A stretch of DNA of 64,000 nucleotides from Lytechinus pictus (lineage: Eukaryota): NCBI RefSeq assembly GCF_037042905.1, contig NC_087252.1:6822001-6886000 (forward strand), in the 5' to 3' direction. A program made the position numbers and the translations under genes. Under the pieces are notes generated by a model. It was not told the DNA's origin and made no database searches. It saw only the letters and a program-made list of their open reading frames with translations. Every line of letters starts with the position of its first letter. Positions within the stretch are counted from its first letter, which is position 1. Of this stretch, positions 28,901-60,320 are shown in pieces.

Positions 28901-31900
28901 ATGTTGTGTCGGGAAGGAGAAAAATAAATTAAACAGAATGGTGAAAGTTTGAAAGAAATCGGACAAGCAATAAGAAAGTTATAGCTGCTTTAAAATTGAG
29001 ATCACTAATACTATGTAGATTTCAAATTGGCAACTGAGTAAGTAAATTATGACAAGGGGCAAGGACAACTTTCCCATAGGCCATGTACTTTATTATCAGG
29101 GATTTGTGGTTTTCTCCTAAGTACCCATTCCCCTGGGGCAGTAATCTAAATATAACCCAGGTAGTATATCGTTTTATGTCCTCATGAAAGAAAAATATAA
29201 TGTGAAATAAAACTTTTGGGAAAAATGAAATTTTAGCCATAATATGTATTGGAGTACATGGAAGAGTAGTCCTTGCCTTACATCACTATGACATCCCATA
29301 TGCGGCCAATTTGAAGTCTCCATGGGTATAGTGATTACCAATATTTACAACATTTAAAAATTCATAACTTTCTTGTTGTTTGTCCAATATTGTTCAAACT
29401 TTCACCAATCAACTTGTCTGATTTTTCTTTTCCTTATAAAAACAAGTTTTTATTTGGATTGGATTCCCCTTTAACTGCAATATGTGGAGAATTGTAATAA
29501 ATACCATTTATCTATCTATCTTGCGGAAGGGGTCTATACAAAAGCAATTTCCTCTACATACATGTTATCCACGTACAAATCACATAATATATACGAGCAC
29601 ACCCACGCACCCGCCCTCACACACACACGTGCGTTCACACCCTCCCTTACACTGAATGCTGGTTTCGGGATAAAAAATAATCGGCAACAAATTACATCCT
29701 GACAGACAGAAGGAAGGGACTTTGGCGCTATAAGAAAATATAAAATCTGCGGGGTCACAGGAAGAAATTCCTAAACGAGAACAAACTTATCACACGGAAG
29801 GGTTGAAACCCGGAGGCCAGTGGATACCATGCGCGACCACAAAAAAAAAACGTAAAAAGGATGTCTTTTTCCAAATAGGGCACGTTACGTACGTAACGTA
29901 ATAACGGTGTCAAAAACACTAAAATAATGGGAAAAAGGGTAGGGGAAGGCGGGGTAAGTTGAGCCACCACCCCCAGGCCAATAATGAATGAGTCAGAAAT
30001 CGTGGTGGTGTCATGTATTGATGACCCAGTACAAAACCTTTAACTCCATCACATTGTTTTCAACTTTGAAACAAAAAGTACTTTTTTAGAGGGAAAAATA
30101 CAATTTTTTTTTCCAAAAAAAAAAAGAAAAAGGTGTGAAATAGATAAAGTGCTTTTAGTGTATTAGTGTTATTATTTATGGAGAATTAACAAGTGAAAAG
30201 ACGGGAGGGCAGGGGGGGGGGGCAAGCTGCCCCCCCTGGCGGATGCGGGAGAGTAAAAAAAACGGGGAAAAGAGAAAAGAGAGGGAGAAAGAAAGGGAAA
30301 AGGGAATGAAAGGAAAGGGGAAAGGGACAGGAGGAAAACGTAAGGGAAAGGAAAAAGTGAAAAGATAACGAAAAAAATATATTTCATTTTAAATGGAAAT
30401 GGAAGGAAAGCGGGAAAAGGAAAGGAAGAGAACATTTGAGAAAGAACAAATCATTCCGAAATAGGCCTATGTAATGCAATAGCATGATGGAAAATAAATT
30501 AAAAGATGACAAAGTGGCAAACAAAAGCGGGAAACAAAAGGTGGAATGGAATTAATCAAAAGCTAAATTGGAAAACAAAGAAAGGGGACAAGAATAATAA
30601 AAAAACACTTAACACAACCGGGCTGCCGAGGATTGAAAATAAAGAGCGGGAAGAAAGATGGACAGCATACAATATTGTGCGATAAGCGTGCTAAATTTTA
30701 TGCAAATAAGCTACTGGGGCTTTGCCCCAGACCCCACGCAGTAGGGGCTCTCCATCTATAACTTTCAAATGAGTCTATAACCCCCCCCCCCTGTAGTGAC
30801 CCTTCCCACATTAAGCTTTACGTTCAACTACTGGCGCAAAGGCGAGGGGGGGGGGTTCCACACCCAAGAGGAAATAAAATAAATTATAGGAGACAACGCA
30901 TAATGAAATTAATGGAATCAGTGAAATGTGTTATTTGCTGAATATAATGGAAAAATCTGTCACATAATTACAATTTAATTTCAATCGGCAAACTTTTCCT
31001 GGTCGCTTTGCTCGTTGGCAATATTTTTTTACAAAATTTCCTACATTGCTTTGTTTTGCCCCCTCAATTTTTTTGGTTCATTCCGCGAGTGGGTTTGATA
31101 AATGTGTTGTATAAAAGCTATATTCTGTATATACCCGCGATTTGATTAAAAAAAAACCGGCAATCTGCGAGGTTGAAATGGATCTGATATCAAGAAGTTC
31201 CGGGGCTCCTCCCGGACCCCAACCGCATAGCACTGCCGTATATGAGGGGGGGGGGGGGGGGGGCAACAAATATTTGTTTAGGGTAAAGATAAGAATCCGA
31301 ATTTAAAAGGTATATTTTCTTACTTGTTGGGTCATATGTAACTGCTGCACTAATTGATGTATTTCCAAGGTAATTACCAGCCATACACGTGTACTCTGTT
31401 CCAACTTCAGGATTTGAAACAGTGACATCATTCACACTTTCCATTGATTCATGTATCAGGGTACCATTAGAGAATATATAGTAGTTTCTCATTGTTGGAG
31501 TAGGTTCACTCTCTGCAGTACATGTCACTCCGATGCTGTCTGTTCCATCGGTTACATGCTCAGCAGTGACAGTAGTACCAGCACTAGATGGAGAGGCTAG
31601 GTTGGGAAAAAAATATATATATTGAATAGATTAAAATTGGCCATGTTCTTTATTGTTAGATTCAATAGCATAGAGGTGTCAAATGTATTTCCCCTAAAAT
31701 TATGTTTATCCATCCTTATATATGCACAAAGTAATTATTTGAAGAAAACAAAATTTCACTTCAGTTGTATTAAACATTGTACTCACAACGTGGTTTTCTC
31801 TTATAAGAAATAATAATGAGATACTGAACAGTAAGCTGCCTTCCAGTTTATATATCATTTTATATCAGATTCATCAGCTTTTATTTAAATCAGGAAGATC

Positions 31901-34288
31901 TCATCATACAAACAAATAGGCTGCCATGTTGTTCAGAGGGTAATCCAATCCAAATTAAGTAGTTTTAAGGAAAATGAAAAATCAGACGAGTAGATAGTAG
32001 GTGAAAGTTATGGAGACTTCAGATTGGCAGCAATGGTGATGTCATAGTTATAGAAAATGCCATGGCAACTCTTCCATTCACTCCAACACATAAAAAAATT
32101 TTTTAAAGGTTTTACTTCACACTATATTTTTATGTAATTAGTACATAAACGATACGCTACTTATGTTATATCATGGTCACTGCCCTAAGTAGCGTGTACA
32201 GTGTAGGCCTTCTTACTATGAATATCTAAATCTCTTGATTCCTGTCTTTCCAGCTCTGTAAGGTGATATCCAGTAGCCCGACATTCCAAAGTCTGTAAAT
32301 GATTTTCTTGAGTTGCTGGGAATGTGAACACATTATTTGTATTATATAATGGTGGTGTAGCTTTTGGGTATGTTTCAACTATCGTCTTCCCATTGCCATC
32401 AGTCTGTTCAACACCATTCAGATACCATGTGATGTTAACTGGTGGTTTGCTTCCAACAACTTCACATGTTGCTTCATACATATCCTCTCCACTGCTACTT
32501 AAATGACTTCTTACAGTTGGTTCAGTTAAACTTCCTGGAGCTAAAATCAGAATACAAAAAAATATGCAAGTGACAATTTAATGATACACATTACTTAGGT
32601 TTATACGGGACCCTGTAGAAAACAAGTGGCATACTGGTCTTAAAAATAACTAAATAATAGGAATAAAGAAAATTGGGACAAAATTAAAAGGTGACCTGTC
32701 GATTTTGACAGACGACCGGAGTATGATTTTCTGTCAAAAATAAGGAATGGGAAAATTGGGGCATGACATCATGAACAGTATTGCATATTGCTTCATACAT
32801 ATCATCATTGTTGACCAAGTTACTGATCACAGTCAATGTCATAGTTGGTGCAGCTTAATTAAGAAATGAATAATGCAGGTTAACTCATTGACAAATCTAA
32901 GGCTTTGGATATGTTTGGTTTACGGTTTACTTTCAGCCTTCAAGAAAAACCGCACCTCTAATACGTTGGAAGGCGAACTATTCTCTTAAAATCTATTTGT
33001 ACTTCCCTTCATTATATTGTGTTAATCTTTTTAAATCTCAGATGAATTAGAACGCTTCAAACTAAATTGTATTGCATTGGTTGTAAATTATGTTACCTGA
33101 ATTTAAAAGTTAATCATTTCAAACACTGAACACTTCAAAACAAATTTCTTTTACAAGAATGTAACATCCATACAAATTTGATTACTTACTTATATTCATA
33201 AAATGAACATTAACTGCAAGGGTCGGAGAATAACTGATCGCGCTTTCACACCTATAAGTGAACAATGATATATAGCACACCTTTTCCTCATCGACCAAGG
33301 TCCAGCCGCGCAGGTGAGCGGATGGTGAAATACTAGTTTTTCCGGTAGAGAAAACTATCAAAGATGAAAAGGGTAAGATTGATTCTAAAAATTATTGTTT
33401 CATTTCTTAGCATAATAGAATGGATTATGTGATGATTAATAACCATACAATGTTCTCACCTTCTACTACAAAGTCCATACTACCATCAGTACTCGGAATA
33501 TCACATCTATAGACCCCATCATCTGTTACTTCTGCACTAGAAATTGTCATCACTGATTGTGTATTTGTCAGGGAAGTTACATCAAAGTTACTAAACTTTT
33601 CATCATCAGTGATAGGGACTGTTCCAGCAAAGATACTTTCACCTGTACTATCATCTACCCATATAATTGCAGCTGCTGTTCCACCTGTAATATCACATGT
33701 GAGTGTGACATCAGTTCCAGCTGCTGCTGGTGAAGTACCGGTTACAGTTGCTGTTTGCCCATTGGTTCCTGGAATAAATTGGGTGAAAAATAAACAAATT
33801 AATTAAAAATTTCTGGTATTTGTGGTAAAGTTTTAGAAATCGTTTTTGAATACACAACCTGTAGCCTCTCACTGCTTTAAAGCTTTGGTTGCCAAGTATT
33901 TACTTGACCACTCGTAAATCTTGCCCTTGTAAAAACTGACCTCACCAAATAACAATATTGACGTATATGTTTAATGCAACTGTTCTTGTTTTTTTGAATA
34001 ACTGATTTTTATTTATTTCAGGTTATATTTTTCATATGTCAAAGATGATTGTATAGGAGATGCCTAGCTAAAAACTAAAAATTTCTTGTTTCACAGAACT
34101 AATCACAAATATTTTGAACAAAATCCCTCATTTATCCTTTGCTGATGATCAACGACTCAGATATAAAAATGAAATCACTTCCTTCGATCACTCCTAATCC
34201 TGTAAATAATTTCAAGATAATTACCTAAAACAAGCACCAGAACTGAGAGTACACGCCATGAAACCAGGCCAGCCATCGTCTTGGTCAT
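13228..34288 (-). CDS. Gene A: type I membrane IgSF receptor (signal peptide, 3 Ig domains, TM, ~53-aa tail, no kinase), 420 aa
   Basis: Exons 34225-34288, 33460-33768, 32217-32540, 31324-31596, 24631-24783, 23908-23938, 14972-15042, 13228-13265; all GT-AG with compatible phases; sum 1263 nt = 420 codons + stop. Confidence 0.8.
13320..13903. mobile_element. Kolobok-like MITE (TTAA TSD)
   Basis: TTAA|AGGAGAATGAAAC ... GTTTCATTCTCAT|TTAA, long imperfect inverted arms; relative at 25808-26385. Confidence 0.85.
14049..14607. mobile_element. Kolobok-like MITE shared with the paralogous intron (~57316-57885)
   Basis: TTAA|AGGATACTCCGG ... CCTGGAGTACCCGT|TTAA. Confidence 0.7.
14972..15042 (-). CDS. 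Gene A cytoplasmic exon RKEMNIPQGVNNNVANEIIQSRDR
   Basis: 71 nt, phase 2-1, CAG/GTGAG sites; paralog at 58269-58339. Confidence 0.8.
18455..22276 (+). mobile_element. RTE-clade non-LTR retrotransposon, near full length
   Basis: ~600 bp GC-rich 5' UTR, single APE-RT ORF, short 3' UTR ending GATGCCA(AT)n. Confidence 0.93.
19078..22203 (+). pseudogene. RTE polyprotein: AP endonuclease, reverse transcriptase, C-terminal Cys/His zinc knuckle; frameshifted
   Basis: SWNVRT, LQETR, GDFNA, DHSLV (APE); NYRGISLL, QCGFR, DLTKAFD, GVKQGCVLAP, FADD, YLG (RT); CSSC..SHRRSC; breaks near 19803, 19835 and 20756. Confidence 0.93.
23908..23938 (-). CDS. Gene A 31-nt cytoplasmic exon EFHESNKNDK
   Basis: TAG/GTAAG sites, phase 1-2; 28-nt paralog differs by one codon indel, two synonymous changes and one substitution. 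Confidence 0.75.
24631..24783 (-). CDS. Gene A stalk + TM exon TTPEPTPCPCSPSGLSSGASAGIAILAILLVASIIINFVQFIPLRRKTKP
   Basis: 153 nt, phase 1-1, hydrophobic helix followed by basic stop-transfer. Confidence 0.88.
24973..25691. repeat. Local direct duplication of ~230 bp (24973-25201 and 25453-25691)
   Basis: Both run TTTAAATCGAA..ATGTCCATAATTATT..ATGGGCCCGGATTCA..ATCGCAAGCGCGA. Confidence 0.8.
25808..26385. mobile_element. Kolobok-like MITE
   Basis: TTAA flanks, GAATGAAACC / GGTTTCATTC TIR, related to 13320-13903. Confidence 0.85.
27615..28480 (+). mobile_element. Decayed CR1/L2-group LINE RT fragment, interrupted by a small MITE (~27797-27953)
   Basis: INDF..YVDDLTLVE..LYKWAESNKIKI, VKLLGITIRDDFKW, GYIRLIL..APVWSGGLT; frameshifts; probable 3' tail to ~29520. 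Confidence 0.75.
28876..29470. mobile_element. Kolobok-like MITE
   Basis: TTAA|AGGGGAATCCA ... TGGATTCCCCT|TTAA; internally deleted inverted relative at 59176-59414. Confidence 0.88.
31324..31596 (-). CDS. Gene A Ig domain 3 exon
   Basis: VTCTAESEPTP...GTEYTCMAGNYLG; 273 nt, phase 1-1. Confidence 0.88.
32217..32540 (-). CDS. Gene A Ig domain 2 exon (C-type)
   Basis: ATCEVVGSKPPVNITWYLNG...LECRAT; 324 nt, phase 1-1. Confidence 0.9.
33460..33768 (-). CDS. Gene A Ig domain 1 exon (V-like)
   Basis: GTDVTLTCDITGG..IIW..SVMTISSAEVTDDGVYRC; 309 nt, phase 1-1; not in the ORF track. Confidence 0.9.
34225..34288 (-). CDS. Gene A first coding exon, signal peptide MTKTMAGLVSWRVLSVLVLVLG
   Basis: ATG, hydrophobic core, phase-1 GTAA donor. 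Confidence 0.8.
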
Positions 34289-35264
34289 GTCTATGTTAAA
34301 CAGCATGTGGTATTATAAATTTATTCTTTCCCGTGGAATGTTTTTTGCTTGTTACGATTGTTTGCGTTCGCGGAGCGGGGATGGCCGCACCCTTTCAAGA
34401 AAACCGGGGGAACTTTTCTCAAAAGGGTGGGTTGACTGGTATCTTGTAACAGTTTTTATTTGTGTGTCTGTGTAAGTTTGTTTGATGATATGGATGTTTA
34501 TATAGGTTGAATGAGGGTGTGTGTAGGTGCGTATGTGTAGCTGAGAAAGGAAAGAATTAAAAAGAAAACACTTATTTCTGTGCATTTTTATTTTGACTGA
34601 TCTATTTTGAATAGTCTCGGCGATGTGCGGCGACCGGGTTGCGGTACATGGAATACTCCTACTAGCAACTTGCGATAGAAAGCCAATTCTAAAGTAATGT
34701 GCTTTAGTGGCGTACATATGACGCTCATGACAAAGAAAAGTAAATACAAAAGGGAAGAGAGAAGTGTGAAATATATTATTTGCTAAATATTATGTAATAC
34801 TAGTAATTGGATTGTTTGTAATAAGAATATCAAATTTTTTGCTCGCTCATAACTTTTTAAAAAATTTTGCCCGATACGCCATATGCGGCAGGGTTCACCC
34901 CTCAAATTTTGTTTTACTCAATATTCCACCGTTTTAATTCGTCACACAATATACAATACGCTGTAATGAAAAATAATATGCCGTATGTATATAGCGCTTA
35001 AAGGTAAAATACAGTAGTTGCAGCAAACAATGGTACATTAATGAAAACTTATATTTGTAAAATCATGAAATCTTAGCTCAAAATAGATAATTCTAATGAT
35101 CACTAATACAGAAAAGCATATATAGAACAGTGTATTAATATTGCTTCGAAAAATACATTTGATGGAATTCCCTGTTTTTTTGCTAATTTCTCAGCAATTA
35201 CGCATTTTATTCCAGAGGTATTTGGCACATTTTTTTTATTTACACATACAAAACACTTTAGTGG

Positions 35265-38200: not shown

Positions 38201-39321
38201 CAAGATTGTCTTGCACTCTCATCATTATGGGCCCTCAACTTTTCTACTCCCGATTCGTTAATCCTAATCAACCAGAAATAGAAAGTTGCTAAGTACAAGT
38301 TTGTATATTCTGATTCGACTTCTAAGAGAGTACTTGAACGTAATCACCTTATCAGCAACCTTGGGAAACTTTTCTGATTAACGTAATTGGCACTTAATAG
38401 CATGGTGATACTATCGATAACTCTGTCACTCTTGACTGAAAAAATTAAATTAAAGCAAAATATCATGTCATTCGGCATATATGGCATGGGGGTACACGAT
38501 ATTGTACGTCAGTCTTTGCGATTTTTTGTTCTTAGAACGGGCCCTTTGCGCACTAAATAAATTGAGAGATTGGATATAAGTAGGTGATATAGGTCCCTTA
38601 GTACAGATATAGATCATAACCTGACATTGGTATCCCATTACTTTGGAAGAGGATTTATATCCAACAGAAAAAATATATATAAAGTCAGGGCATAACTTCA
38701 CAAAATTTGTCCAGAACAGTATGTGTGATATCATCCACATCATATCTGTTTAAGCATGGCCCGGAGAAGCGGTGCCGCACCATATAGGCAACAACACATG
38801 GAAATCAGGTTGGTATACTAAAATGTATACATTTTACCAAAATCACCTAAATGTTGTTAATTTTGGAGCCTTACACCCCCTTTTTCGCTTGTCAATTTTT
38901 TCTGGGCCCAATCACAATAAACAATAAGTTCATATCACATTTTACCACACTGTACACAATAGTACATATAAAAAACTCACCTTATCCAGTTACCAACGAT
39001 ACATTTTGTTTGTATTCGTCTTTACCTTTTTGGTATGTTTGGCGAGTACAGTGCAGCTCTGCGAGCTCTGAATTCATTTTGTCAATGTAAACAAATTTTT
39101 CTCGTGTTCCTGCTTTCAAAGTTGAATCTCCAGTCAGTATATCATATATGTATATCCGTTTGTCATGTTATAAAGAGGGCGTTACAACAAATATAGTCGG
39201 GGTTATAATTGAGGACGATGCAGCCTGGAAGGTAAAGAAAATTTCACTTAGTTTTTCTAGACAAGTTTTTCATGCTTCACCATGTTCACAAGAATGTATC
39301 AGTGAACAGTAAATATTAATT
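35265..39321. repeat. Recent ~2.03 kb tandem duplication (35265-37297 and 37299-39321)
   Basis: Near-identical copies; identical spurious ORFs at 35286/37321 and 36827/38851. Confidence 0.95.
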
Positions 39322-46075: not shown

Positions 46076-46135
46076 TCACATCTCCAGAGTAGAGGCATAC
46101 AACCCATCATCCAAGTCATTAAGAGACAAGTAACT
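46076..46135 (-). CDS. Gene B last exon SYLSLNDLDDGLYASTLEM*
   Basis: TTTCACAG acceptor, phase 0, TGA. Confidence 0.75.
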   Translation of the reverse strand, partial: SYLSLNDLDDGLYASTLEM

Positions 46136-49100
46136 CTGTGAAATAAGACAAAATAGTTACAATTTTAATGTCATCAAAATTAGATTTCAAACCAATAATG
46201 ATAACTTCAAATTTACTTATATAATGACGGTACTTCACGGATTAAATTTATTTAGTTAGTCATTCATTTTCACAAAAACAATGTATAATACATGTTTTAA
46301 CAATCAATATAATATCAACTGCATGTCAATATAGACTCCTGTTAAAATAAGAAAAAAAATAGACTCCTTGTAATATCAAAGGTACACATAGAAATCATAC
46401 AAATTATATAATAAAAATGATAATGACAATATTAAAAATAACAGTGCAGTTCTTAATACGCATAACACCTACATGTCTCTATGCGCGAGGTTAGGATGTG
46501 GTTAGAATTGTAAATTTAATAATTAGATATCAAATGATTATACATAACATCAAAGAATATTAAACAGGGATTGAACCTACATGTGACTAAGTTAAACATT
46601 CTGAAAGAGATGGGTTTTAAATTGTAATGGAAATAAGTGAAGATATCATATTTTGTTTTTATTGCATCTTGCATATATATTTTTTTCATTGATATTATAT
46701 CATGGCATTAAAAATTAATTGTATAATGAATCATAAATAATATTAAATGATAAAGAAAAGCGTAGTTTTGTGTAAGAGAGACAGAATTGTTTTAATCTTA
46801 CGTGTGTCTTTTCTAAAATCATTTCCATACTCTTCAGGATGTGATCAAAGTTACTCCGATTTTGGGGTTCCTTGTCCCAGCAACCAGTCATAACTACATA
46901 CCTTTGAAATAAATAAAAGATGATGTTTATAAAAAATATTACAAGTGTTTAAGGAAGTATAAATGGAACTGATTTAAAACGTGGAATTATTAGAGGGGTA
47001 GGCCTATTTACTACATGCTGAACATTTTATGATTTAAACAGACAGGGTTAATTCACACTAAAAAAAGACTAGGAATTCCTTCAAATTCATATAATAACAA
47101 AGGTATAATATGTTAAAGTTTTGCGCTATTTTTTGGTGAAATAGTTGTACGCATGTCCACTCGAGTATACAATGAGAAAGCTGATTCTATTTTCTTTTTT
47201 CAGTATATATGAACTAAGATTTTTTTAATATTTTGTCCGCCTAAAATGAAAAGTAAAATGATTGATAAGTGATTTAATCTGTGAGATATTTTTTGCTGTA
47301 TTTTTTTTGGTTAAGAAGAAGACATATTGTATGCACATAAGAATGAAAATATGAAATAATAATAATTTCATGAAATTACTTGAGAAAAAAATAAAATGGG
47401 ACAAAACATCATCGGCTCTCTTATTAAATATTTATGACGGCGTACATGTAGCTGTTTTCACAAAAAAATCAAAATTCAATAACTTTGACATTTGTCAAAT
47501 CTTGATACAATCATCAGCATTTTGCCAAATTATTTCTGTTATACTTTAGATGAAAATTATTTTCAACCCGGAGTACCCCTTTAGTATAGGTCATTCAAAT
47601 CATGTTTCCCTATGATTGTGCGAAAAATCTCTATCTGTGAAGAGTGATTTTGTTTTTCTTTGTTGTGAATTTGGAACATATACGATAAATGAATTCACGA
47701 GAGTAAACAACAAGTGAAATTCTCTATAGGTCATTTTACAATCCTAGTAATCCTTGACAAGCAAGTTCTAGATTTTCTTATAAAAACTTAAGTATTACAC
47801 TTCTTGTGCACAGTGACGAGGGTGTGGCATCTGGTAACCATTAGCAACCTCCGTCTGAACCGAGCTGAATGTCATATTTGGGTATGGCCTTGCACCTATC
47901 AGAATGTGAAAGCAAAAATCATATTGTTAAGAATCTGAATATTGAATATCTAGAAGTTGCCCAAAATAATTATATATTATTAGAAATAGAAGTATGAAAA
48001 TTCTCATTTACCCTAAAGCCAGGGTAATAATATCCAAGTCCTTTGGAAGCGCATAGAGACGTTATTTATAATGTGTTATGCGCTTACAAGAACTGTCTAT
48101 TATTATTATTATTATGAACATGGTATCAAAGTTTGATTTCTTTTAATATCTCGACTCCGATAACCCCCTCCTCCATGTTTGCATATGTGCCCCCAAAAGG
48201 GGTAAATCACACGTTTTTTGTTCCGTTCAGCTAAAATTACTGGGTCTAATTTTAAACAGTATATCATTCATCTGATTATCAGTCACAGATTTAACCATAC
48301 CTAAGCCAAATAACTTTATTTGTAGCAATTATCAATAACTTTTTTAAATGTTCAACATCGCCCGGCGTTTTATTTATCATTAGAATGTTCGATATCATTA
48401 TCTTTCGAGCCGAATAAAGTTATCATGTACAATGTTATTTCAATATTTCCGTCATTATTGTTGGTGTTGTAGTAGCAGTTGTAGTCATGGTAGTAAGATA
48501 ATTGTTTTTGTTGTATTTTTCCTTTTATCATAATCATTTACCATTTTATCATCGACAACTGGTAGAGAATTATCATCATCGCCACCATCGTCAAACCTAT
48601 CATTGTTATTTAGTGATATATGACTAATGGGGCGTTGCAAGAAAGTTATGTTGCAATTGATTGCAAATCGACTGCAACTTTGCAGCCGATTCCGATCGAC
48701 TGCAACTAGCAATCAATCGCCAATTTGCGTTGCAAGAAAAAGGCTTGCGATTGAACGCAAGTTGCAGCTGATTTGCAGACGATTTGCAGCTGTAAACAGG
48801 GTCTGCAGCACAAGACTAGCTGATGAAGCAAAATAACTCTTGCGATAATCGTGACTGTGGAAGAGAGTAAGTAGAAATATTCATTTTTCACAGCTTTCTT
48901 TCTCCATTATGTATGTTTTCAGAGAATTTATATGTTTTAGACCTATGCCAGGGAAAAAAATATTTTGTAAAAAGTGAAAATGTATCTTTATCGCCAGTCG
49001 AAATTTCACCTTCAACAATTTTTTAAGCACACAATTTGAACCCAGTCCCGCTCTTGACTTTTTGTGTTGGTAATGCACGGTTGTACCAACACGACAGGAC

Positions 49101-52100
49101 ATTGCCGGTGCAGTGCTGTTAAAAATCACCCTGAAGCAAGTAAATTTGTAGGCTCTAATTATGTATGAAATATCGAGAATGACCTTAAAAGATTATTATT
49201 GTTCATATTTGAAATGATTTTTAAGTTATATCAGTTTCTTTCAACGGCGAATAACCATCCAGTAAATGGATTCAATGCAGTCGAATGGCCACAACTTTTG
49301 AGAAACACTCGACAGAAAGCAATTTTTTGTTTTTAACTAAAGGATTTTTAATTTAACGTTAGGCTTTAAATCAAAGACTTCCATTATTAGATCCTCTCCA
49401 TTAGTCTCTCTTTGTTAAGAGTCTGTCTAACCTCCCTTTTTATGACTTTCCTTGGCCTGGCCTGGGATAGAGTGAAAATTTGGCTCTTTTGACTTTGGAG
49501 GAATTTTTTTATTTATTTATTTAATTTTTTTTTTTTTTTTTTTTTTTTTTTTGGGGGGGTTCTCCACATATTTCGCCAGGCAAAAAACAACAACAACAAA
49601 GGTATAGGGGGTCTACATTATTAATTATTTATAAAGATGTTATTGGGCTAACCTATTGGCCACATCTGCCACATTCTTGGGGAAGTTTTTAACATTGAAA
49701 AGGGAGTTGCCAGCCCAGGGCTCAAAAAAAAAAAATACGGGCAGATTGCACAAAAGGTTCTTTGCAAGGACAGTCTATTTGTGTCATTGATTTGTAATGA
49801 TGTGCTGTACGCATTTTCAATATCCATCACATATAAGATATACATGTAAATACATTTTTTTAGATTTAATATGTAGATCTTCTATGCCTGGGAGGGGGTA
49901 CTTACATTTGGTTTGGACTTTGCGGCTGAAGGTTCAAAATCCATACCCATATTTACATGTCATTTTGGCTAAAAAGGTACCCATTATTAGGGATTCATTA
50001 CAGGGGCAGATCCAGGATTTTCAAAGGGGGGGGGGGCACATTTTCCCCTGGAAAATTCGACAAGCAAAAAAAAGAAAAGGTTATCACCCAAAATGTACGG
50101 TCATTTCGTATTTGCACCTAAGACAATGGAGTAGAATATGGACCCATGTTTAAAGCCAGTATCTAAACATTGGGCCATGTTTAGGGATTTTCCAGCATAA
50201 AACCATACCCATGTTTAGGGATTTCTTCCAAAAAAGCAACCCATTCCAGGCACATCCCTGTATGCCTTATTTCGTGAGTACCCCCCCCCCCCCCGGCTAC
50301 TATGTAGCTGACTCTTAAATTGATTTATATACAAGCACATGAATGGATTTAATGGATGATTACAATGCTTTTTCAAGTGCTTTCAGTAAATGGGTGTCTC
50401 ATATGGTGCATCATTATTAATATTGAGTGCATAATCATGATTTTTTTTTCTTTTTTTTACATCAAGCATAATGCTCGTAGGGGGCATATGGTCCCCCTTG
50501 ACATTTTTCAGAATAAATCTGCCACTCAAAATTTGATTACGGCACCGCTGACTGACGTTTTACTTTCAAGTCTCACACAACATTTGAGACCAAATTTCCA
50601 ATGCCAAAGGTGCAGGGTCAGGATATTGTGCAACATTGTGTTTGTTTAAGTACATGTCAGACAAAAACATGATTACATGTAAAAAGTCAATATTCATAAT
50701 TGGGTAATTACTTATTGACAATAGTAATTTGATGTCATTGATGATCTTTGGAAAAAAAATTGAAAAATACTTTTAAGAAAAAAAAAAAAAAAAAAAACAT
50801 GAAAGGAATTTATTTTGATACCAGATTTTTAAAGTAAAGTTGTTAGGAATGCTCTAAAAAGGAATATGTACACCAAAGTTTACCATTCTATTACAAGCTT
50901 TTTTTTGTAAATTAAAGCAAAAGGTATGATTTCATAGATTATTTAATTGTGCCACCCATGGCTGAGGAACCACAATGCCCCTCCCCAGGCCAGAAGTGAC
51001 CATAATCAAAACACCCTGGGACTACTATAATGATTAACACACTGGCAACTGAGCTTGACTTGTATATTAATTTCATGAACATGTTTTTATCTCTTTTTTT
51101 CATTGCTTACTACAGTTTAATGGATACGATGACAAAGAAGTCTGGAATAAACAAGAAACCTCAGAACCTCCATAACTGTGTCTGTTACAATGTATGTTCT
51201 TGCAACCAGCTGATTGATTCATTTTATCAAATGGTAGGCTAAATGTAAACTATTAATATGAATAATTTACCATGATCGAAATGGGGATGGGGGTGAAATC
51301 TGTACCAAGGATAATGCAAAATGAAAAAAACAAAAACAAATCCCTATCTTGACTGGACATTTCTCAGCAATGAAGACACCTCATTGATGGGGGGGGGTGT
51401 GGTTGTGCTCATCGTCCAAGGTGTACTGTATGGAAGTGTATATTTTGCTTTCATTGATTTAATTTATTGCGTATTTTAATTTCATAATTCATTGATTTGG
51501 GGAAAAACAGTAAGTTCACACTTTTTTTAGATTACATCATGGCAACTTGCAAATTATAATGGTCTCAGAAGTAAGCCACTATCCCTCTATCATATCATCA
51601 TGTCGGTGCAAACGCCCTTAGCAGCAGGCATAAGGGCATTTCTGCACCGATGGGGTGCACAAAAATGTTTTGCTAAGGGTGTTCTTGCACTGAAAGGACA
51701 AAATTTGAACTAACCCAAGCTATGTATTAGTTATGGGCTTGCATTATTTCCTATATTATTATTTTTTTATGAACAGGTTGATTATCAGAACTGAATTCAG
51801 AGCTGCTCCTGTCTGAAGTAACATCATTATTAGAGTGGACTTCAGAATAGGGGTTTTACTGGTTTAAAAACTTCACTCCATGGAGCTCTCCAAATTTATC
51901 TCAAATTAGACTGCTTCTGGAAACCAGATTTGTTCCTTCAAGCAGAGACACTTGCGGCTTTCCTGACTCAGGGGTGTGAGAGTTCAGATTTTTATATGAT
52001 TTCCGATTTTTTTTTTCAGCTTAATTTCAGCTTATTTTTGGCCTTCCTCTGTACAAAAAGTATGGGAGCTCTTTCTATTTCAGACTTTGTCAACACTCTT

Positions 52101-55100
52101 CAGCTTTTTTCAGATCTTTTTATTTGTGACCACTCACACCCCTGCTGACTGGACTTCTATGGATTCTTCATGCCAACCTTAAGAACTGTGGTCTTCTGCA
52201 TGATACACGTCAATTTCAAACAAGACATTCTGTGGTGAAACACTTGATGTAGATGAAATGAAATTTTATTACTGAATCTCAGAAGTAATTCCTCGGAAGC
52301 AAGAAACAATGAAAAATAAAAATGAAATGTCCATCAATAATGAATTTCTTGAGCAGTGTTCTTTTTTTGTGCACAGATCAATGAAGCATTTCAATTCCAA
52401 GCAGGTATGTAGTCAATGCTGACCTCGAGGCAACACTTTGCTGGCCTTGGTCTGAGACACTGTACATAATCTATGGGAAGTTCTCTCAAGCTGCCTCATG
52501 ACTCGGAAGGATCAGCCTCGACCTCATCCCTGTATCAGTGTAGTAAAATCACGCGAAATCGTCATTACGCAAACATGTAATAAAATGAGGTCACCACAGT
52601 GAATCGATAACAGCGAGAGCGCTGCACATTGCCAACGGTTCACAGAGATTTGCACGCAAACCTATGAGAAACAAGCGAGAGCGAACGATTCCACGAGCTC
52701 TTCCCCCCTCTTTCCCTTCCCGGCGATTTGTCCCAAAACAAAAGGATTTCCGCAAACTACGATACTTTGTTTTTCAACTTTATTAACATCCGATCTATCC
52801 ATGCCAATTAGATTTTTACCGTGCCATTTTGTTATAAATTAGCAAAAGAACATGTACATCAGTTTTGCCAAGCTGAATAAAACGACTGGTAGGCGTTTAT
52901 GACAGCCGTCATTCATGTAAACTTTTGTATCCGATATGTGAACTTTCATTCCACATGTAGTGTACTGGTATGTACACAACGTCGTACTATATACTACAGT
53001 GATATCGAAGGTTTTTGCGTTAGTATTAATATTCAGAGGTGAAAGCAACGGGAGCATATAAGATTGACATGTTCAATAAAATCCAGTAAAACTATATAAA
53101 AATAATGAGTCCTTGATGCATTTCACTGACACAGTGAAGGAATTATCAGGATCATCACATCATCACTTATTACAAAACAGTTGAACATGATGAAATTATA
53201 AAACTTACATGACTTGTCCAATATCACATGAATCATAATATCCCTTATTTTTCCTTTGGCTTTATAATGACTGTTGAGTGCAGAAAAGGGGGAAACGTTG
53301 ACTATTTTAACTGGTACTGGCTGGTTGTTCCCGTAGTCAGTTAGCGTGCATGTTTTAGGCCTACATTCACTATGATCACGATGGTCAGAGAACAATTTCC
53401 CTCAATTCTCTCTTATCATGCTTATCATTACATGTATCATGTGTATACCTGGGAGATGGGGTTTGGTGTGTGCATGGAGCTACTAACTGGTGTGGGCATG
53501 CAAGGAAATATACCTGAGGTATAGGCCTTAGTTTGTGTGTAAGTTCATTGGGCATGTTGGGTCGGCTCTTCGGTCAAGAGCGCCGGTGCTGTGTGCATCA
53601 TCGCACGGTGCAAGCTTCTGTGTCAAATACGCGCGAAACGACTAATAACAGGCTACAAAAATCACTCGACCATGCTGCCGCTATGCGAATTCGGTGTGCG
53701 AAGATTACGTAACTTTCACCAAAATTAACGCTACACCGTAATGACGATTTCGTGTTATTTTACTACACTGTGTATGCAAATGTGATATATATCTACGATG
53801 CAATCTCATGATTAAAGAGAGAGAAACGAGAGCTTCAGATTTTGAAGTGTAGCAATCTCCTGAAATTTATGTTTTATTTGAAAATCAAACTAAAATAACT
53901 TAATTAGGCATGTTATTCATTATGATATTTATGAATGAAAGCATTGAAGCAAATTGGTGCTCTTGCAAAACAAATTCTGAATTGTATTTACTGCAAACCC
54001 TCAGAAATACATATAACAATTTGCCAGTGCATGAAGTTTTTTGATAAAGAGTGGCTTTTGTGCCTGTGGAGAGTTATTATTTCTTTAACATTTCTTCATA
54101 CAAATTATTTCAGAAATCACAATTTGAATATTCCATGACCTCTGTTAATAAGAACAAAATATTTTTGGTGATTGACACACTTCAAAATGATATTAGGAGA
54201 GAATGTAGTGAAGTTGTGTGAAAATAATGGCATAATTGCTGTATGAAGATTGAAAATAAAAGTATTTTAAGTTTTTCTTGAAAAAACCTATGGAAAATTG
54301 AAAATGGCATAATTTACACAAGTTTTCAAAACAAATCACCCCCCCAATTTTTTTTTGGAAAAAATAGTACACAAGCGTATGGACAATCAATTGAACGTAA
54401 ATTGAGCGCAAATTTTGCGCGTCCTCCAAAATATTACATAAGTTACGTTCGATTTGCAACTAATTGCAAAGCTTGCGCTTGATCTACGTTCAATTGATCA
54501 AACGCAACTTGTTCTTGCAACAGGATTGAACGTAACTTGCGTTCAATTGCAGATTTGCGTTTAATCGGAGGACTTACGCTCAATTTTGGGAGTTGCGTTC
54601 GATTTGCGTTCAATCGCAAGTTTCTTGCAACACCCCATAAGATATTAGACTTTTACACGTAAAACTTCGTGCACCTCCTTTCTTACCCAGTGTCACGATT
54701 TCCCACAAGACGATACCAAAAGACCAGATGTCTCCTTTTATTGTTTGGTCACCCGTTGCCATGGTTTCTGGTGAACTCCATCTGGATGGTTTCTACATAT
54801 GACGGTGTGCAGATAACAAATAATCTTGCTATAACAATAATTCAAGCGATTGGTAATTATAATATGCAGTGAACCTATAAAATATCAAATATGTCTTAAT
54901 ACTGGCCGAAATAAGCAATAATAGACTGGTATGGTTGCAGGCTGATGATCAAAGTCAAGGGTCACGTGAGTTAGGGTTCCAGCCTCGCTTCATTTAGAAT
55001 AATATATTTTCATTTACATTATCAAGTTATCAAATAGGAGATTAATCTCTATGACAAGCCTACACCATAAACATTCATTATTGTAAGGCATAACGAGTCA

Positions 55101-58100
55101 CACTTACAGCTACGTCACCAAAGAGCGATGAAGAAAGTCCATAGTCTGATATCTTACATTGCTTTCTTTCTCCTAGCAAAACATTGTGAGCGCAGAGAGC
55201 CCCGTGGATGATCTGAAGAAAAGAGAAATACACTTGCAACTCTATATAGTCTTTAGGGTATTCATATACATTTATTTTGATCTCTGTGAAAGTCGACAAA
55301 TTTCCCGTCTTACATCTGTGTTAAAAAAAGGAGCGATAAACCATTCATATTCCAATTGTATGATTGATAATACCTGTAATGTTTCCAAAATAATTTAGGT
55401 TTAAGGAGAGTATGGCTGCCGAAAATATTTCTGATGACATGGTTGTACAGAGTTGCAACCCTAATTGCGAAAACGATTTTCTACTGTATCTTGGACCGGT
55501 CAAGTTTTCAAGTCTGACTTAAAGGGTCCATTTCAGCTTAAAGGGCGATTTTTATTTAAAAACCCAACTGCCTCCCTTTCTCCTCTTATACCCCTTTTTT
55601 GTTAAGGAATCTCATAAAAAATACCTTCTTAGATGCAAGGAACTGCATCCCTTTAGCAACCTGCCAAGCCAAGTTAAGTAGGGTACCCTCCTCAATACGA
55701 ACACCGTTTGGTTTGAGATTGCTGTACGTGGGTTGAGATTGCACCCCTGAAGTCTGTAGATGGGTAAGGAGTGTACCCCCTGAGATGAACTCATACAGAA
55801 TACTACCTGCATGCATAAATACACATCAAAAACTGTGGTGTTGACCGGTGTACATAGAGGACCACACCAGTTATTTTACACCGGTGTTAGTTTTACACCT
55901 AGAGGTGTCATTACAACACCTTTGGTAGTTACAATTACACGCTTTGTCTCGAGGGTGTAATTTTAGCACCTCGGGGTGTGGTCCTCTATTAACACCAACT
56001 GGTGTCAGTTCTAACACCGCAGTTTTTACAGTGTAATAGATTGTAATAGAAAGGAACACTCTGTGACGTCATGTTTAATAATTGTATCTTCTTCATTGTA
56101 ATTTAGGATAAGTATCCTTGCATTATCAAATGGAATGGATTGTTGTGTCTTCTCCTTTTGTTTTGGTGTAAGAACCCCCACCCCCTCCCCCTCTCTCTGT
56201 CTCTCACACACACACTCTCAATCTCTTCTAGGGGTTTTCACTCATCAGAAGGTGCAATGTGCCATCTTTTAATTGGTAACTACCTCTCTCTTGTGTCTCG
56301 TCGAGATGCCTTGGATGAGGGAAAGGGGCCAACGAACTCTTTAGCGATTATAACAAATATTGATATATTGTTGTTGTTTCCATCAGAGCCAATTATATTC
56401 CATATTGTCCAATTAAAAGGGCTTTACGTACCTTGTTCTTTACAATATCCTAGGCATTTGACAATATTTGGTTGATCCGATAGCTCGTAAAGTACCTTGA
56501 TGGCTTGAAGAACTTGTAATGATTTTGTCACGTGATCTAAGAGAGTGTATAGTATATAATGATATAATGGTATGACCTTTCATTTTAATATTCCCCTTCC
56601 GGAGTGTTTACCCTTGACCAATTTCTGGACAAGCAAAGAAAATATTAAAAAAATATATAAATATTACTATTATTCAAAATGGGGGCATGTTCCCCCCCCC
56701 TTCACGTTACCCCTGCCCCCCCCCCCCTCCTTCTTTGATCCCGGTGAAACTGAATTCAAGTGAAAGGGAAGCCTTTGGCATTAAAACTATTTAATTATTT
56801 ACTTTGGTTTCCAATCTGCTTGTTCAGAATGACATCCTATAACGATGTGGTAATAGCATAAATAATGAAATTAAAATTTAATTGAGGTGACAAATTAAGC
56901 ATGGCCTTCAAATATGAACTTCTCTCATTGTCATTAATCATTGTTAACTTTACAAGCTACAAACCATCACCTGGTATTTGCCTAATAGCAACGTCGAGAT
57001 GGTTTTGTTTTGATCGAAGGTCTCCCTTCCATACCTCGCCGAAGTCACCCCGCCCAATCGAGCCAAGTCTGGTGAAGAACGTCACGTTTTCACGGGCAAT
57101 GACGAAGGAGTGGGTAGAACCCAGTTTTAACGCTGTGTATGCTGTATTGTTTTAAAACATATATATTTTCCACTAAGTACAATTAAAATACTGTACATGT
57201 ACTTAGAACACCTAGTCCATTATGTCTGATCTTGTGAGATTTCTAATAAGTGTCTTGGTCAGTAATATCTTTGCAGTGAATATAAAGTAACTATGGATGT
57301 GAGATTAAGAAATAGAGGGATACTCCGAGCTGAAAATAATCATATCTAAAAAAATTCACTGAGCAAAGTGCTGAAAATGTTATAAAAATATGATCGCGAA
57401 AATAACTCAGTTAGTGAAATTTAAGATTTAGTAATATTTTGTGAAGTCATGTATATGCACATCGTCAGATGGACCGATGATGCCATACCCCCACTTTTTG
57501 TTCTTATGTTATTACATGAAAACATAATTGTCTAAAATGTTCATGCATGTTGTAAGATATGTCTCCCTTCTGACAAAATAATTGCAGTAATGAATATCCA
57601 ATACATGAAACCAGTTGTCAATTGAAATATTCTTTATTGTAGGAGGTGAAAATTTCAATAAACATTATTGCATATAATAAAATACTGAGTTACAAGTGGG
57701 AATAACAAGATCATCAATTAACTCACTGCATATTCATGAAGAAATGCAAAAAAACCTGTTATAGCGATAAAATAAAAATCTTTAAAATGTCATTACCTTG
57801 TTTTCCCCTTGATAAAATTTGTAATGCTTTGTTTGATTTTCCTTTATCTATTGAAATAATATTATTTTCAACCAGGGGTACCCGTTTAATAGTAGTGGTA
57901 TACATCATATAAAGAGTTCCCTCACACCACTAAGAATAAAGATAAGGTAAACACTTGCTGACGCTTAAAATATAATTTTCACTTATCCTTTTTATGTACC
58001 TTTGGCCTATATGCCATAGAGACCTTATTGTGAATTATCAGGGTGATAAAGATATAATATGGATGATGTTATTTTTTTTAAACAGAGCGCCCAAATCAAA

Positions 58101-60320
58101 GTAGTTGTACGAATGCATACTGTTTAATAGAAGGAAAAAAAATGACAACATAATACACGTTTATTTGAATAAGTAATATTTATATGGAGTTTATGGTTTA
58201 ATGTTACACAGCTTATATGCAGAATCAATAGAAAAGTTACAAAATCTCATTCTTGAGTAATTTCTCACCTCGATTTCCACTTTGAATCATCTCATAAGCC
58301 ACGTTGTCATTCATCTCCTGTGGTATATTTATTTCATTGCTGTAAAAAATATATAAATTGATTAGAGTTTATTTCATCTCATGAGAAATGATATTTTTGT
58401 TACATCCACTCAAAGGCATTTCATGGTACATATATATTAGCAACAATCGCAATGAGGGAAATGTTATATCAGTCAATGATTATTACCCATTATCAAAGTG
58501 TTCCTAAGAACGGGATTAGGAAAAACGTCTCAAAGAACGCCTTCATTATTTGAAGGATCTTGGTTTTTTCCCTATTGGAAATAAATCAAATATATATCTG
58601 TTCACATGAATTCATCCTTTGTCTTCCTATTTCCGTCAGTAAATGTGTATGTATCTCAGTAAAATTTATGCGTGAACGTTGTAATTTACTTTAATACTAA
58701 CCTGTGTGTTGAGGCGAAGTGTGTGTGGTTAGAAATGTGAGTGTGTTCCGTTCTTTTCAATGGTATAGGATGTTGTAAAGTTTGGTATAAATATGTGTGG
58801 TTATTTAGTATGGGCTGTTACAGTATCGGGTTTGAGGGTGTGCGCGAGTGGATGAATGTGTGGTGAGTGAGTGCAAGGTTGTACGGGCGTATTCGTAAGG
58901 TGAGTTAGAAGAGTGTGTGCATGCACGGGATGCGAGTTGTGTGTCAGAGGACGGGAGTGTTAGAGAGGGAGTGATGTGTTCGAGTGTGAGAGAGTTGTGT
59001 GTGTATGATAGGGAGCAAATGTGAAAGTGCAGGCAGTGTCTATAAAAGTGTGTGTATCTCTAATGATAAGTGTGAGTGCGTGGGTGTGTTTGAGATTATC
59101 TGAGTGAGTGTCTGTGCGTGTTTTTTTCATGTGGGGGAGAAAAAATGGTGTGCAAAATTGGTGGGTTTGGTTTAAAGGGGAATCCAACCCAAATAAAAAC
59201 TTGTTTTTATAAGGAAAAGAAAAATCAGACAAGTTGATAGGAGAAAGTTTGAACAATATTTGACAAACAACAAGAAAGTATCAGTGATCTCAATTTTATA
59301 AGCAGCTATAACTTTTCTATTGCTTGTCTGATTTCTTTCAAGCTTCCACCATTCTGTTTAATTTATTTTTCTCCTTCCCAACACAACATTTTATGGCCAA
59401 GGTTGGATTCCCCTTTAATAGAGATCTGTACATATTATAGATTCATTGTAGTCATATAAAATGTGAGCGTGGGTGTTGCCTTCTAGGGTGTGCGTGTATG
59501 TGTGTCCGACAAAATATTTTTCCTTCTACTTACCTCTTATTATTCTTTGACTCATGGAATTCTAGTGGATAAAGATATAAATATACACGTTTTTAATAGA
59601 GTGATGAAGAAAAAAAATGTAGCCATATGTAAACCGAGATGGCAAAATAAATTCAAGAGAGCACTCGAAGTCAAGATGCTCAAGATTTTGTATACCTTTG
59701 CTATCAACTTTCAGTTTTACCTCCCCTTGATAAAACATTAACGTATCAATGATCACTTAATATCCCACCTACTTGAATTATGGTATAGTAATTCTAACAC
59801 GATCTTACTAAGCGGAAATATGCTCAGATCTAGTTAACAAACATTCTTTAGATAAACGACAAGACACGATATGAGTAGCGGGCGGAAAATAATGTTGCTT
59901 TTATTTTCATGATCATCAGAATAAATACATTCCAACTTTGCACCTTTACAAATATTAGACGAGGAACACCTTTGAAGTTGCACCTTTGAACATGTTCCTC
60001 TTTTGTTGGAGTTATACTCTTTTAAATTGGTATGACTTTAGGTAACATGTCCATTGTTTTACCTCGTCTATGTAGTCAAGTTAAACAAGGGTTAACTTAT
60101 TACATTACATTACTTCTTCTTTTACATTCACATTTACTCTATGTGAATATAACTACTCAGTAATTACCTGGTTTGGTTTTTCTCCTAAGAAGAATGAACT
60201 GAATAATGTTGATGATGATAGAAGCTACTAAGAGGATGGCTAGGATAGCTATTCCAGCAGATGCTCCAGAACTCAAACCAGACGGTGCACAAGGACATGG
60301 TGTAGGCTCGGGTGTAGTCT
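46076..60320 (-). CDS. Gene B (5'-partial): receptor tyrosine pseudokinase with TM, juxtamembrane ITAM and Tyr-bearing tail
   Basis: Exons 60168-60320, 59534-59561, 58269-58339, 56971-57141, 56432-56536, 55625-55806, 55108-55212, 54687-54792, 47799-47895, 46802-46901, 46076-46135; all GT-AG, one open frame (1178 nt from a phase-1 start). Confidence 0.88.
46802..46901 (-). CDS. Gene B kinase subdomain XI exon
   Basis: YVVMTGCWDKEPQNRSNFDHILKSM. Confidence 0.88.
47799..47895 (-). CDS. Gene B kinase subdomain X exon
   Basis: GARPYPNMTFSSVQTEVANGYQMPHPRHCAQEV. Confidence 0.88.
49887..50296. mobile_element. Nested poly-G-ended MITE with 8-bp TSD
   Basis: CCTGGGAGGGGGTACT ... AGTACCCCC..CCGG; flanks CTTCTATG / CTACTATG. 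Confidence 0.7.
51969..52144. mobile_element. Nested MITE with 6-bp TSD (hAT6-like)
   Basis: CAGGGGTGTGAG / CTCACACCCCTG; CTGACT on both flanks. Confidence 0.8.
52536..53770. mobile_element. Nested TIR element with 5-bp TSD (hAT5-like)
   Basis: 34-bp TIR CAGTGTAGTAAAATCACGCGAAATCGTCATTACG (2 mismatches); TGTAT on both flanks. Confidence 0.85.
54687..54792 (-). CDS. Gene B kinase subdomains VIII-IX exon
   Basis: KPSRWSSPE...GDIWSFGIVLWEIVTLG, tyrosine-kinase-type signature. Confidence 0.92.
55108..55212 (-). CDS. Gene B kinase subdomains VIb-VII exon
   Basis: IIHGALCAHNVLLGERKQCKISDYGLSSSLFGDVA. Confidence 0.92.
55625..55806 (-). CDS. Gene B kinase subdomains V-VIa exon with short insert
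   Basis: ILYEFISGGTLLTHLQ..PTYSNL..LLNLAWQVAKGMQFLASKK. Confidence 0.92.
55822..56033. mobile_element. CAC-ended (EnSpm/CACTA-like) MITE
   Basis: TA|CACATCAAAAACTGTGGTGTT ... AACACCGCAGTTTTTACAGTG|TA. Confidence 0.7.
56432..56536 (-). CDS. Gene B kinase subdomains III-IV exon
   Basis: DHVTKSLQVLQAIKVLYELSDQPNIVKCLGYCKEQ. Confidence 0.88.
56971..57141 (-). CDS. Gene B kinase subdomains I-II exon
   Basis: AYTALKLG..IGRGDFGEVWKG..DVAIRQIP. Confidence 0.9.
58269..58339 (-). CDS. Gene B juxtamembrane exon NEINIPQEMNDNVAYEMIQSGNR
   Basis: 71 nt, phase 2-1. Confidence 0.82.
59176..59414. mobile_element. Internally deleted Kolobok-like MITE
   Basis: TTAA|AGGGGAATCCAACC ... GGTTGGATTCCCCT|TTAA. 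Confidence 0.85.
59534..59561 (-). CDS. Gene B 28-nt exon EFHESKNNK
   Basis: TAG/GTAAG sites, phase 1-2. Confidence 0.75.
60168..60320 (-). CDS. Gene B stalk + TM exon TTPEPTPCPCAPSGLSSGASAGIAILAILLVASIIINIIQFILLRRKTKP
   Basis: 153 nt, phase 1-1; 4 amino-acid differences from gene A. Confidence 0.88.

Follow-up and report, generated by a model that had tools for sequence, protein, structure and literature searches.

A lineage-specific family of receptor tyrosine pseudokinases in sea urchins

The focal gene and its product

We analysed a stretch of 64,000 nucleotides from the sea urchin Lytechinus pictus (NCBI RefSeq assembly GCF_037042905.1, contig NC_087252.1, positions 6,822,001 to 6,886,000), here called the window, which carries on its minus strand part of a gene for a receptor tyrosine kinase (RTK) with an inactivated kinase domain. 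An initial annotation made from the sequence alone had described 11 exons, running from 60320 to 46076, that splice into one open frame. We found that these exons have AG/GT ends and matching phases and give a single 391-aa frame with a TGA stop, which is identical to part of the L. pictus RefSeq protein XP_063959537.1 (732 aa, named 'FGFR3-like' and here called P0150). The exons are real but are not the whole gene, which runs past the window; the RefSeq-matched model has 16 coding exons, all open, and its leader, three immunoglobulin (Ig) exons and stalk exon lie beyond the window.

The first of the 11 minus-strand exons (60168..60320) encodes the end of the stalk and the transmembrane helix, as judged from the frame, the helix in an AlphaFold2 (AF2) model and the joining of the next intron in contigs of runs X10 and X1. 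It is followed by a juxtamembrane micro-exon of 28 nt (59534..59561; frame and contig joints) and by a juxtamembrane exon (58269..58339) with YEMI (Tyr416 of P0150), the first half of a YxxI-x6-YxxL motif of the immunoreceptor tyrosine-based activation motif (ITAM) type. The second half, YTAL (Tyr426), shares an exon with the G-loop GRGDFG and the beta-3 motif VAIR, in which Arg stands for Lys (56971..57141). The next three exons encode the alphaC helix, with Ala for Glu, through beta-4 (56432..56536; alignments to active kinases); beta-5, a Tyr gatekeeper, the hinge, a kinase insert with the YxN motif YSNL, and alphaE (55625..55806); and the catalytic loop HGALCAHN, which has neither Arg nor Asp but keeps the Asn, with DYG and a short, Tyr-free activation segment (55108..55212). 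The P+1 loop, SPE and alphaF (54687..54792) precede an exon with PYP and alphaG that ends at a phase-2 intron in alphaH (47799..47895). The frame is completed by alphaH to alphaI (46802..46901; frame and contig joints) and by the C-terminal tail with the twin tyrosines YLSL-x7-YAST and the stop codon (46076..46135).

Outside the window lie the V-set (G000:C8:6902830-6902522), C2-set (C8:6898322-6897993) and third Ig exon (C8:6889459-6889187) of the same gene. The equivalent exons of a neighbouring copy, c6, score as V-set, CD80-like C2-set and Ig in Pfam. The receptor is laid out as leader, V-set, C2-set and Ig domains, Thr/Pro stalk, single transmembrane helix, pseudokinase and tail. The AF2 model has three Ig domains, a transmembrane helix at residues 360-387 and a full kinase fold (predicted local distance difference test, pLDDT, 75.6; predicted template-modelling score, pTM, 0.46); together with a fold search it points to a generic tyrosine-kinase fold only and says nothing on the ATP pocket. 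The initial annotation had recognised the pseudokinase and had missed the Ig ectodomain and three features described below: the array of tandem copies, the motif of ITAM type and the swapping of ectodomains.

It had also proposed junction support as a check. In contigs of runs X10 and X1, neither of which is on record as RNA, at least 8 of the 10 introns are joined at the predicted sites as CT..AC, among the joints listed (15 of 33). Since copies that are 95-99% alike cannot be told apart in these joints, the family is spliced and the focal copy is not singled out. What is observed is splicing of the focal copy or of a near-identical paralog.

Inactivation of the kinase domain

Residues were called from alignments of Tie2 with the family member P0017 and of an active sea-star RTK with P0150. 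Compared with active kinases, the beta-3 Lys is replaced by Arg, the alphaC Glu by Ala, HRD by HGA and DFG by DYG. The activation segment contains no Tyr and falls about 8 residues short of theirs. The G-loop is kept, as are the catalytic-loop His and Asn and the Asp residues of DFG and alphaF. By sequence the domain is therefore a pseudokinase: the Lys and the HRD Asp are missing, as is the alphaC Glu, and the kinase fold is intact. All of the motifs quoted in the initial annotation (G-loop, C-lobe scaffold, VAIR, Ala, HGALCAHN and DYG) are present. Its count of DYG among the inactivating changes does not hold, since DYG keeps the Mg-binding Asp and is not in itself inactivating.

We found members of the same family in L. 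pictus, L. variegatus, Strongylocentrotus purpuratus, Diadema antillarum and D. setosum, and in S. purpuratus runs of consecutive family accessions lie on one scaffold. Motifs were counted over 86 non-redundant records, isoforms and older gene models included. The beta-3 Arg is present in all 77 records that cover the site, the catalytic Asp in none of the 86 and the catalytic-loop Asn in 85; both the Asp and the Tyr of DYG are kept in 85/86. The activation segment is 12-13 aa long and Tyr-free in 95/95 family records, as against 18-23 aa with a Tyr in 66/66 active matches. The replacements are ancient family traits, shared by the five sea-urchin species, which rules out a recent inactivation of the focal copy. 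As judged from these sequences, the inactivation predates the split between Diadema and the camarodonts, about 200 million years ago. A fixed pocket may follow from the invariance of the Arg and of the DYG Tyr.

The near-invariance of the G-loop, hinge Glu, catalytic-loop Asn, DYG Asp and alphaF Asp could also be read as the mark of an atypical, weakly active kinase that uses the DYG Asp, the Asn, the G-loop and the invariant Arg. JAK pseudokinase domains (P0288, P0257) read HGN... at the same place, and JAK2 JH2 and HER3 have weak kinase activity. However, the urchin domain has lost Lys, Glu and catalytic Asp together, whereas P0288 and P0257 keep the beta-3 Lys, and in the oldest urchin subfamily even the G-loop is degenerate. 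We consider weak activity highly unlikely. The likeness to JAK JH2, whose catalytic loop also starts with HG and whose residue after the DFG Asp is also altered, is most likely convergent; JH2, a cytoplasmic domain with about 22% identity, has an active kinase next to it in tandem.

Phylogeny and comparison with known receptor pseudokinases

The initial annotation had suggested a lineage-specific family. To place it we used a tree of 47 rows chosen from about 320 proteins, a set without PTK7, ROR, RYK, STYK1, Tie and vertebrate FGFR. Eleven representatives from Lytechinus, Strongylocentrotus and Diadema formed one clade with support of 100/100 on a long branch. This clade lies outside RET, the cnidarian FGFR-named proteins and Cad96Ca, so that, within this set of rows, membership in FGFR, RET or Cad96Ca, as the RefSeq names imply, was rejected. 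Candidates for the sister group are the sea-star, brittle-star, hemichordate, amphioxus, Cad96Ca, RET and cnidarian FGFR-named kinases. Outside sea urchins no family member was seen in the top 120 of 389 matches of one search or the top 120 of 1190 of another.

The focal gene has the features that define the longDE clade of RTKs in PMC8662651: an ectodomain, a transmembrane helix, PF07714, a long alphaD-alphaE insert and a phase-2 intron in alphaH. Active invertebrate longDE receptors (sea-star and brittle-star multi-Ig-FN3 and amphioxus Ig-SEA proteins, auto-named Cad96Ca-like, Tie-1-like or FGFR-like) share 33-37% kinase identity with the urchin family, as well as the kinase-insert YxNL, the tail YxxL-x7-Y, Ig ectodomains and the phase-2 intron. 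Unlike the urchin family, all of them keep VAxK, Glu, HRD, DFG and an activation-loop Tyr. Descent from an active invertebrate longDE receptor kinase is the best explanation that these sequences offer.

We also compared the family with the human receptor pseudokinases PTK7, ROR1/2, RYK, STYK1, HER3, EphB6 and EphA10. These share with it a single-pass layout, a folded but impaired tyrosine-kinase domain and phosphotyrosine docking sites. None of the eight has the urchin inactivation pattern in Table 2 of PMC13259870; in the parts of that source available, PTK7, ROR, RYK and STYK1 keep the beta-3 Lys and the catalytic Asp, the DFG Asp is lost in PTK7 (ALG) and STYK1 (GLG), and the rest of DFG is altered in ROR and RYK (DLG or DNA). 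In contrast, in the multicopy urchin family, whose ectodomains are exchangeable, Lys, Glu and Asp are lost, and what is kept is the Asn and the Asp of DFG. The view that the gene is not PTK7, ROR or RYK agrees with this difference in motifs. PTK7/CCK4, which like the focal receptor has an Ig ectodomain, has seven Ig domains, Lys, Glu, Asp and ALG in place of three Ig domains, VAIR, Ala, HGA and DYG. PTK7 had been cited as an example; it is a pseudokinase but a poor model, since its pattern is the reverse: Lys, Glu and the catalytic Asp are retained and the DFG Asp is gone. ROR1/2 were excluded by motif and by ectodomain (Ig, cysteine-rich and Kringle; Lys and Asp kept), and so was RYK, which keeps Lys and Asp. 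The RYK-type ectodomain is WIF. STYK1/NOK, excluded in the same way, has a very short ectodomain, VILK, a kept catalytic Asp and GLG.

The best single-domain PDB matches of P0017 were Tie2, RET, KIT and FGFR, with no PTK7 chain among the best 60 of 505, and no PTK7-like gene was recognised among twenty other kinase loci of the L. pictus genome. Language-model neighbours of the receptor include PTK7, KIT and FLT3 clusters, which we read as shared Ig-plus-kinase architecture.

Three other proteins or groups met in these searches deserve mention. P0118 of Ptychodera flava is an Ig receptor kinase with HGELAAKT and NIG that lies outside the urchin clade and is probably an independent pseudokinase. 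Sea stars have a large expansion of active multi-Ig-FN3 receptor kinases (P0205-P0231), and P0200 of the brittle star Amphiura is a model with two kinase domains.

A tandem array with unequal selection on its two halves

Nine head-to-tail copies with kinase exons lie in 584 kb around the window. All nine have HG(A/S)LCAHN and (D/E)YG, and VAIR is found in all eight that have that exon. Copies c2, c3, c5 (the focal gene) and c9 have open frames in all exons located; c1, c4, c7 and c8 are broken, being truncated or having stops or a frameshift. Copy c6 is doubtful, with one acceptor lost, the first ITAM Tyr changed and a long interspersed nuclear element (LINE) within an intron. Its V-set (33460..33768), C2-set (32217..32540) and third Ig exon (31324..31596), transmembrane exon (24631..24783), juxtamembrane micro-exon (23908..23938) and juxtamembrane exon with the Tyr to Asn change (14972..15042) are on the minus strand of the window, and its kinase exons are found 1-11 kb ahead of the window. 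Elsewhere in the genome we counted two orphan ectodomains and no fewer than four further pseudokinase loci. With one 59-aa exon as query, a word-based search gave no match, and an exhaustive search recovered the family. The array has evolved by birth and death.

Selection was measured as omega (dN/dS) among L. pictus paralogs, with models M0, M1a and M2a fitted with our own code. Kinase omega was 0.29 for the four intact copies (p=3e-11 vs 1) and 0.27 for eight copies. In a comparison of M2a with M1a over 8 kinases p was 1, and 80% of kinase sites had an omega of 0.12. The dead kinase domain is under purifying selection, and the value near 1 that had been named as grounds for refutation was not found. 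Ectodomain omega was 0.71 for c2, c3, c5 and c6 (p=0.06 vs 1), and the difference between ectodomain and kinase had p=0.003 for four copies. For 6 ectodomains M2a was favoured over M1a (p=0.0016), with about 10% of sites at an omega of 3.7; the top-ranked sites were 118, 120 and 262, two of the three around the V-domain F-G loop. Ectodomains evolve faster and are partly under positive selection. With the omega of 0.29, the replacements fixed in five sea-urchin species and the single clade, the central proposal, that a lineage-specific family has kept a catalytically dead receptor kinase under selection, stands.

A functionless, decaying duplicate is a very improbable account of the gene. It would fit the state of the array, in which 4/9 copies are broken and one is doubtful, the 6-kb transposon-like insert in a focal intron and transcripts that cannot be assigned to the focal copy. 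Yet all 16 coding exons are open and match the RefSeq protein, omega is far below 1, and the same replacements are kept from Diadema to Lytechinus; decay is at most applicable to single copies, not to the whole family.

The two halves of the receptor have different histories. Identity between the focal copy and c9 falls from 85% in the kinase to 33% in the ectodomain. In the ectodomain tree c9 of L. pictus groups with S. purpuratus (100/99), whereas in the kinase tree all Lytechinus sequences group together (99/100). Forcing the Lytechinus ectodomains together was rejected (approximately unbiased test, p=9e-5, long branches flagged). At fourfold sites the focal copy differs from c3 at 1/137 in the kinase and 17/132 in the ectodomain, and from c9 at 28/122 and 29/48. 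The genomic DNA of the focal copy matches that of c3 at about 94-97% across the kinase and, for the most part, at 80-86% across the ectodomain. A fast ectodomain rate as sole cause of the tree conflict was excluded, since fourfold sites and introns differ too. The conflict between the trees, the neutral sites and the identity to c3 together indicate that the transmembrane-pseudokinase module has been exchanged or homogenised and that ectodomains keep older histories. In its mode of evolution the family resembles immune receptors. Across the family we found V-C2-Ig, V-C2, single V, sushi, WSC plus sushi, and C2 with an FN3-like domain; the WSC and FN3 names were judged from sequence, and some of the gene models may be fused.

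These data bear on a HER3- or PTK7-like co-receptor, which would pair with an active RTK as allosteric activator or substrate and act in adhesion or morphogenesis rather than in immunity. Such pairing is the usual mode of receptor pseudokinases in the available part of PMC13259870, and it would suit the intact kinase fold with its 80% of sites at low omega, the PTK7 clusters among the language-model neighbours and the C2 domain, whose PDB matches are to SYG-2 only. An active RTK lies on the same contig (C8:19.78 Mb), but no active partner with a focal-type ectodomain was found in the array. Tandem birth and death, positive selection on ectodomains and the exchange of Ig, sushi, WSC-sushi and C2-FN3-like ectodomains set the family apart from single-copy developmental co-receptors, and in what is available of PMC4898815 most RTK subfamilies have one gene in invertebrate deuterostomes. 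We regard a co-receptor as unlikely.

Tyrosine motifs and a possible link to Syk

The juxtamembrane YEMI-x6-YTAL agrees with the consensus Yxx[I/L]-x6-9-Yxx[L/I] that the accessible part of the Hydractinia Alr paper uses for ITAMs (bioRxiv 10.1101/2022.03.04.482883). The pattern occurred in 0.11% of shuffles of the 58-aa juxtamembrane stretch, and it is kept in Diadema with a 9-residue spacer. In the oldest subfamily the tail, rather than the juxtamembrane stretch, fits the consensus. The insert Tyr is present in 85/85 family records and the two tail tyrosines in 68/70 and 63/63. YxN, the type of motif in the insert, is a Grb2 site.

A decoy or inhibitory receptor, which would bind a ligand or an active relative and dampen its signal with tyrosine motifs that recruit phosphatases or are vestigial, would also have a dead kinase with a normal ectodomain. 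The lack of a juxtamembrane ITAM in the oldest subfamily would agree with it, as would the orphan ectodomains at C8:7.24 Mb and C8:4.11 Mb, which have no kinase exons nearby. However, a pure decoy needs neither a kinase domain at an omega of 0.27-0.29 nor invariant insert and tail tyrosines, and we saw no consensus for an immunoreceptor tyrosine-based motif of the inhibitory kind (ITIM) in the focal tail. This makes a decoy distinctly unlikely.

The genome has a Syk/ZAP70-like kinase exon at G000:C11:2.02 Mb, with ZAP-70 and SYK as its best single-kinase-domain matches. In single-cell data from S. purpuratus coelomocytes, 'egl-15-like' and 'Cad96Ca(-like)' genes mark clusters 1, 2, 6, 9 and 10, and SYK marks clusters 2, 6, 9 and 10, in the portions of PMC13043383 available. 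The family members P0160 and P0060 bear names of the 'egl-15-like'/'Cad96Ca' type and match these markers by name only, so that the connection between the family and coelomocytes is a lead only.

Hydractinia Alr offers a comparison by analogy only. In the part of that paper available, Alr genes form a cluster of Ig-superfamily receptors that have V-set domains and ITAMs and show exon shuffling and pseudogenes, and Syk is present. Unlike the urchin tail, which is a conserved pseudokinase, Alr tails lack a kinase fold and diverge more than the ectodomains do.

Proposed mechanism and significance

A dead kinase with immune-type tyrosine docking motifs probably signals through other kinases, and we hold it to be highly probable that the focal receptor acts as a phosphotyrosine scaffold. 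A surface ligand or cell contact would cluster the receptor, and a separate kinase, Src-family or an active receptor kinase, would then phosphorylate the juxtamembrane YxxI-x6-YxxL, the insert YxN and the tail tyrosines in trans. The phosphotyrosines would recruit Syk through its tandem SH2 domains, Grb2 and other SH2 proteins, and the folded pseudokinase would serve as a docking or conformational scaffold, probably fixed in one state by the invariant Arg and Tyr. Coelomocytes are the likely site, where the receptor would serve to recognise self/non-self or damage. That the scaffold is joined to ITAM/Syk-type recognition, in a diversified receptor with an immune role, is in our judgement evenly balanced. 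Our more tentative proposal, which we think doubtful as a whole, is that an active RTK became an ITAM/Syk-coupled family of recognition receptors, in which the kinase was killed once, a standard signalling cassette was kept, and old and new ectodomains (V-C2-Ig, sushi and WSC) were recombined and diversified.

Several observations weigh against this scaffold and recognition role. In the oldest subfamily (P0009, P0060, P0063) the juxtamembrane ITAM is missing, the sushi type lacks half of it and that of c6 is broken, and the second half of the focal tail is YxxT, not a strict ITAM. The insert and tail tyrosines also occur in active sea-star, brittle-star and amphioxus kinases, and the tail pair in arthropod Cad96Ca-like kinases; because active relatives have them, these tyrosines are inherited and not immune-specific, and the tail pair was rejected as a family novelty. 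On the side of selection, the omega difference falls to p=0.06 once the broken c4 is added, recombination inflates the site tests, and the fourfold-site contrast is absent for c2 and c6 and weaker for c4. Raw RNA runs X13 and X14 (about 6% read, tissue unspecified) gave no joints, and no depth on several exons, though at that coverage the result carries little weight. Finally, clusters 2, 6 and 9 are UV-treated cells, where very many genes are markers, according to the available part of PMC13043383.

Most known receptor pseudokinases are single-copy developmental co-receptors; here a multicopy family swaps its ectodomains and keeps the pseudokinase as its conserved end. In databases the family is masked by misleading names such as FGFR3-like, Tie-1-like and Cad96Ca-like. 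We found no description of it in the literature searched, although the 2006 urchin kinase surveys lay outside that search and may mention it, and it had no match in the two supplements of PMC11688612. If the ITAM reading is true, the family would provide Syk in echinoderm immune cells with candidate upstream receptors and would illustrate how an RTK can pass phosphorylation to cytoplasmic kinases. If the wider proposal is true, it would amount to a deuterostome immune or allorecognition receptor system not yet described, and to a living intermediate between autonomous RTKs and kinase-less immunoreceptors. The idea is directly testable, because L. pictus knockout and transgenic lines are reported (PMC9245184, PMC11361634).

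Related loci and other features of the window

Four loci outside the array touch the family. At G000:C8:7237148-7241697 (+) lies an inverted V-C2-Ig ectodomain (L066), 75-80% identical to the array type, with no transmembrane or kinase exon in the following 64 kb; by sequence it may be either a secreted decoy or the displaced 5' half of the truncated copy c1. A more divergent V-C2-Ig ectodomain (L081) lies at G000:C8:4110596-4113332 (-), with no kinase exon in 55 kb downstream. At G000:C8:4225717-4231250 (+) we found a divergent pseudokinase with VAAR, HGSLCAHN and DFG (L086), possibly an early branch of the urchin family. The member at G000:C17:11163169-11184402 (-), L077-L079, has an ectodomain that resembles WSC plus two sushi domains, not Ig. 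Between c1 and c2, at G000:C8:7051266-7069046, there are two stranded fragments of the last kinase exons. Three tyrosine-kinase exons with HGDLAARN, in which the Asp is kept and the Arg lost, form a separate non-RD group on another contig (L099, L100 and L101 of G000:C5).

Within the window, a 6.0-kb insert (48628-54637) enlarges one focal intron to 6791 bp, compared with 533-1105 bp in other copies. It is transposon-like, with 17-bp inverted ends and a TAA duplication, which we take to be as in PIF/Harbinger DNA transposons. The endonuclease and reverse-transcriptase frames of the LINE in the c6 intron (19015-22203, +) are split into three frame-shifted pieces. A tandem duplication of about 2.03 kb with 99% identity (35264-39321), which may be real or an assembly artefact, lies upstream of the c6 V exon. 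Near the window start lie a 21-bp minisatellite of about 21 copies (944-1397) and a 197-bp tandem repeat (127-507).

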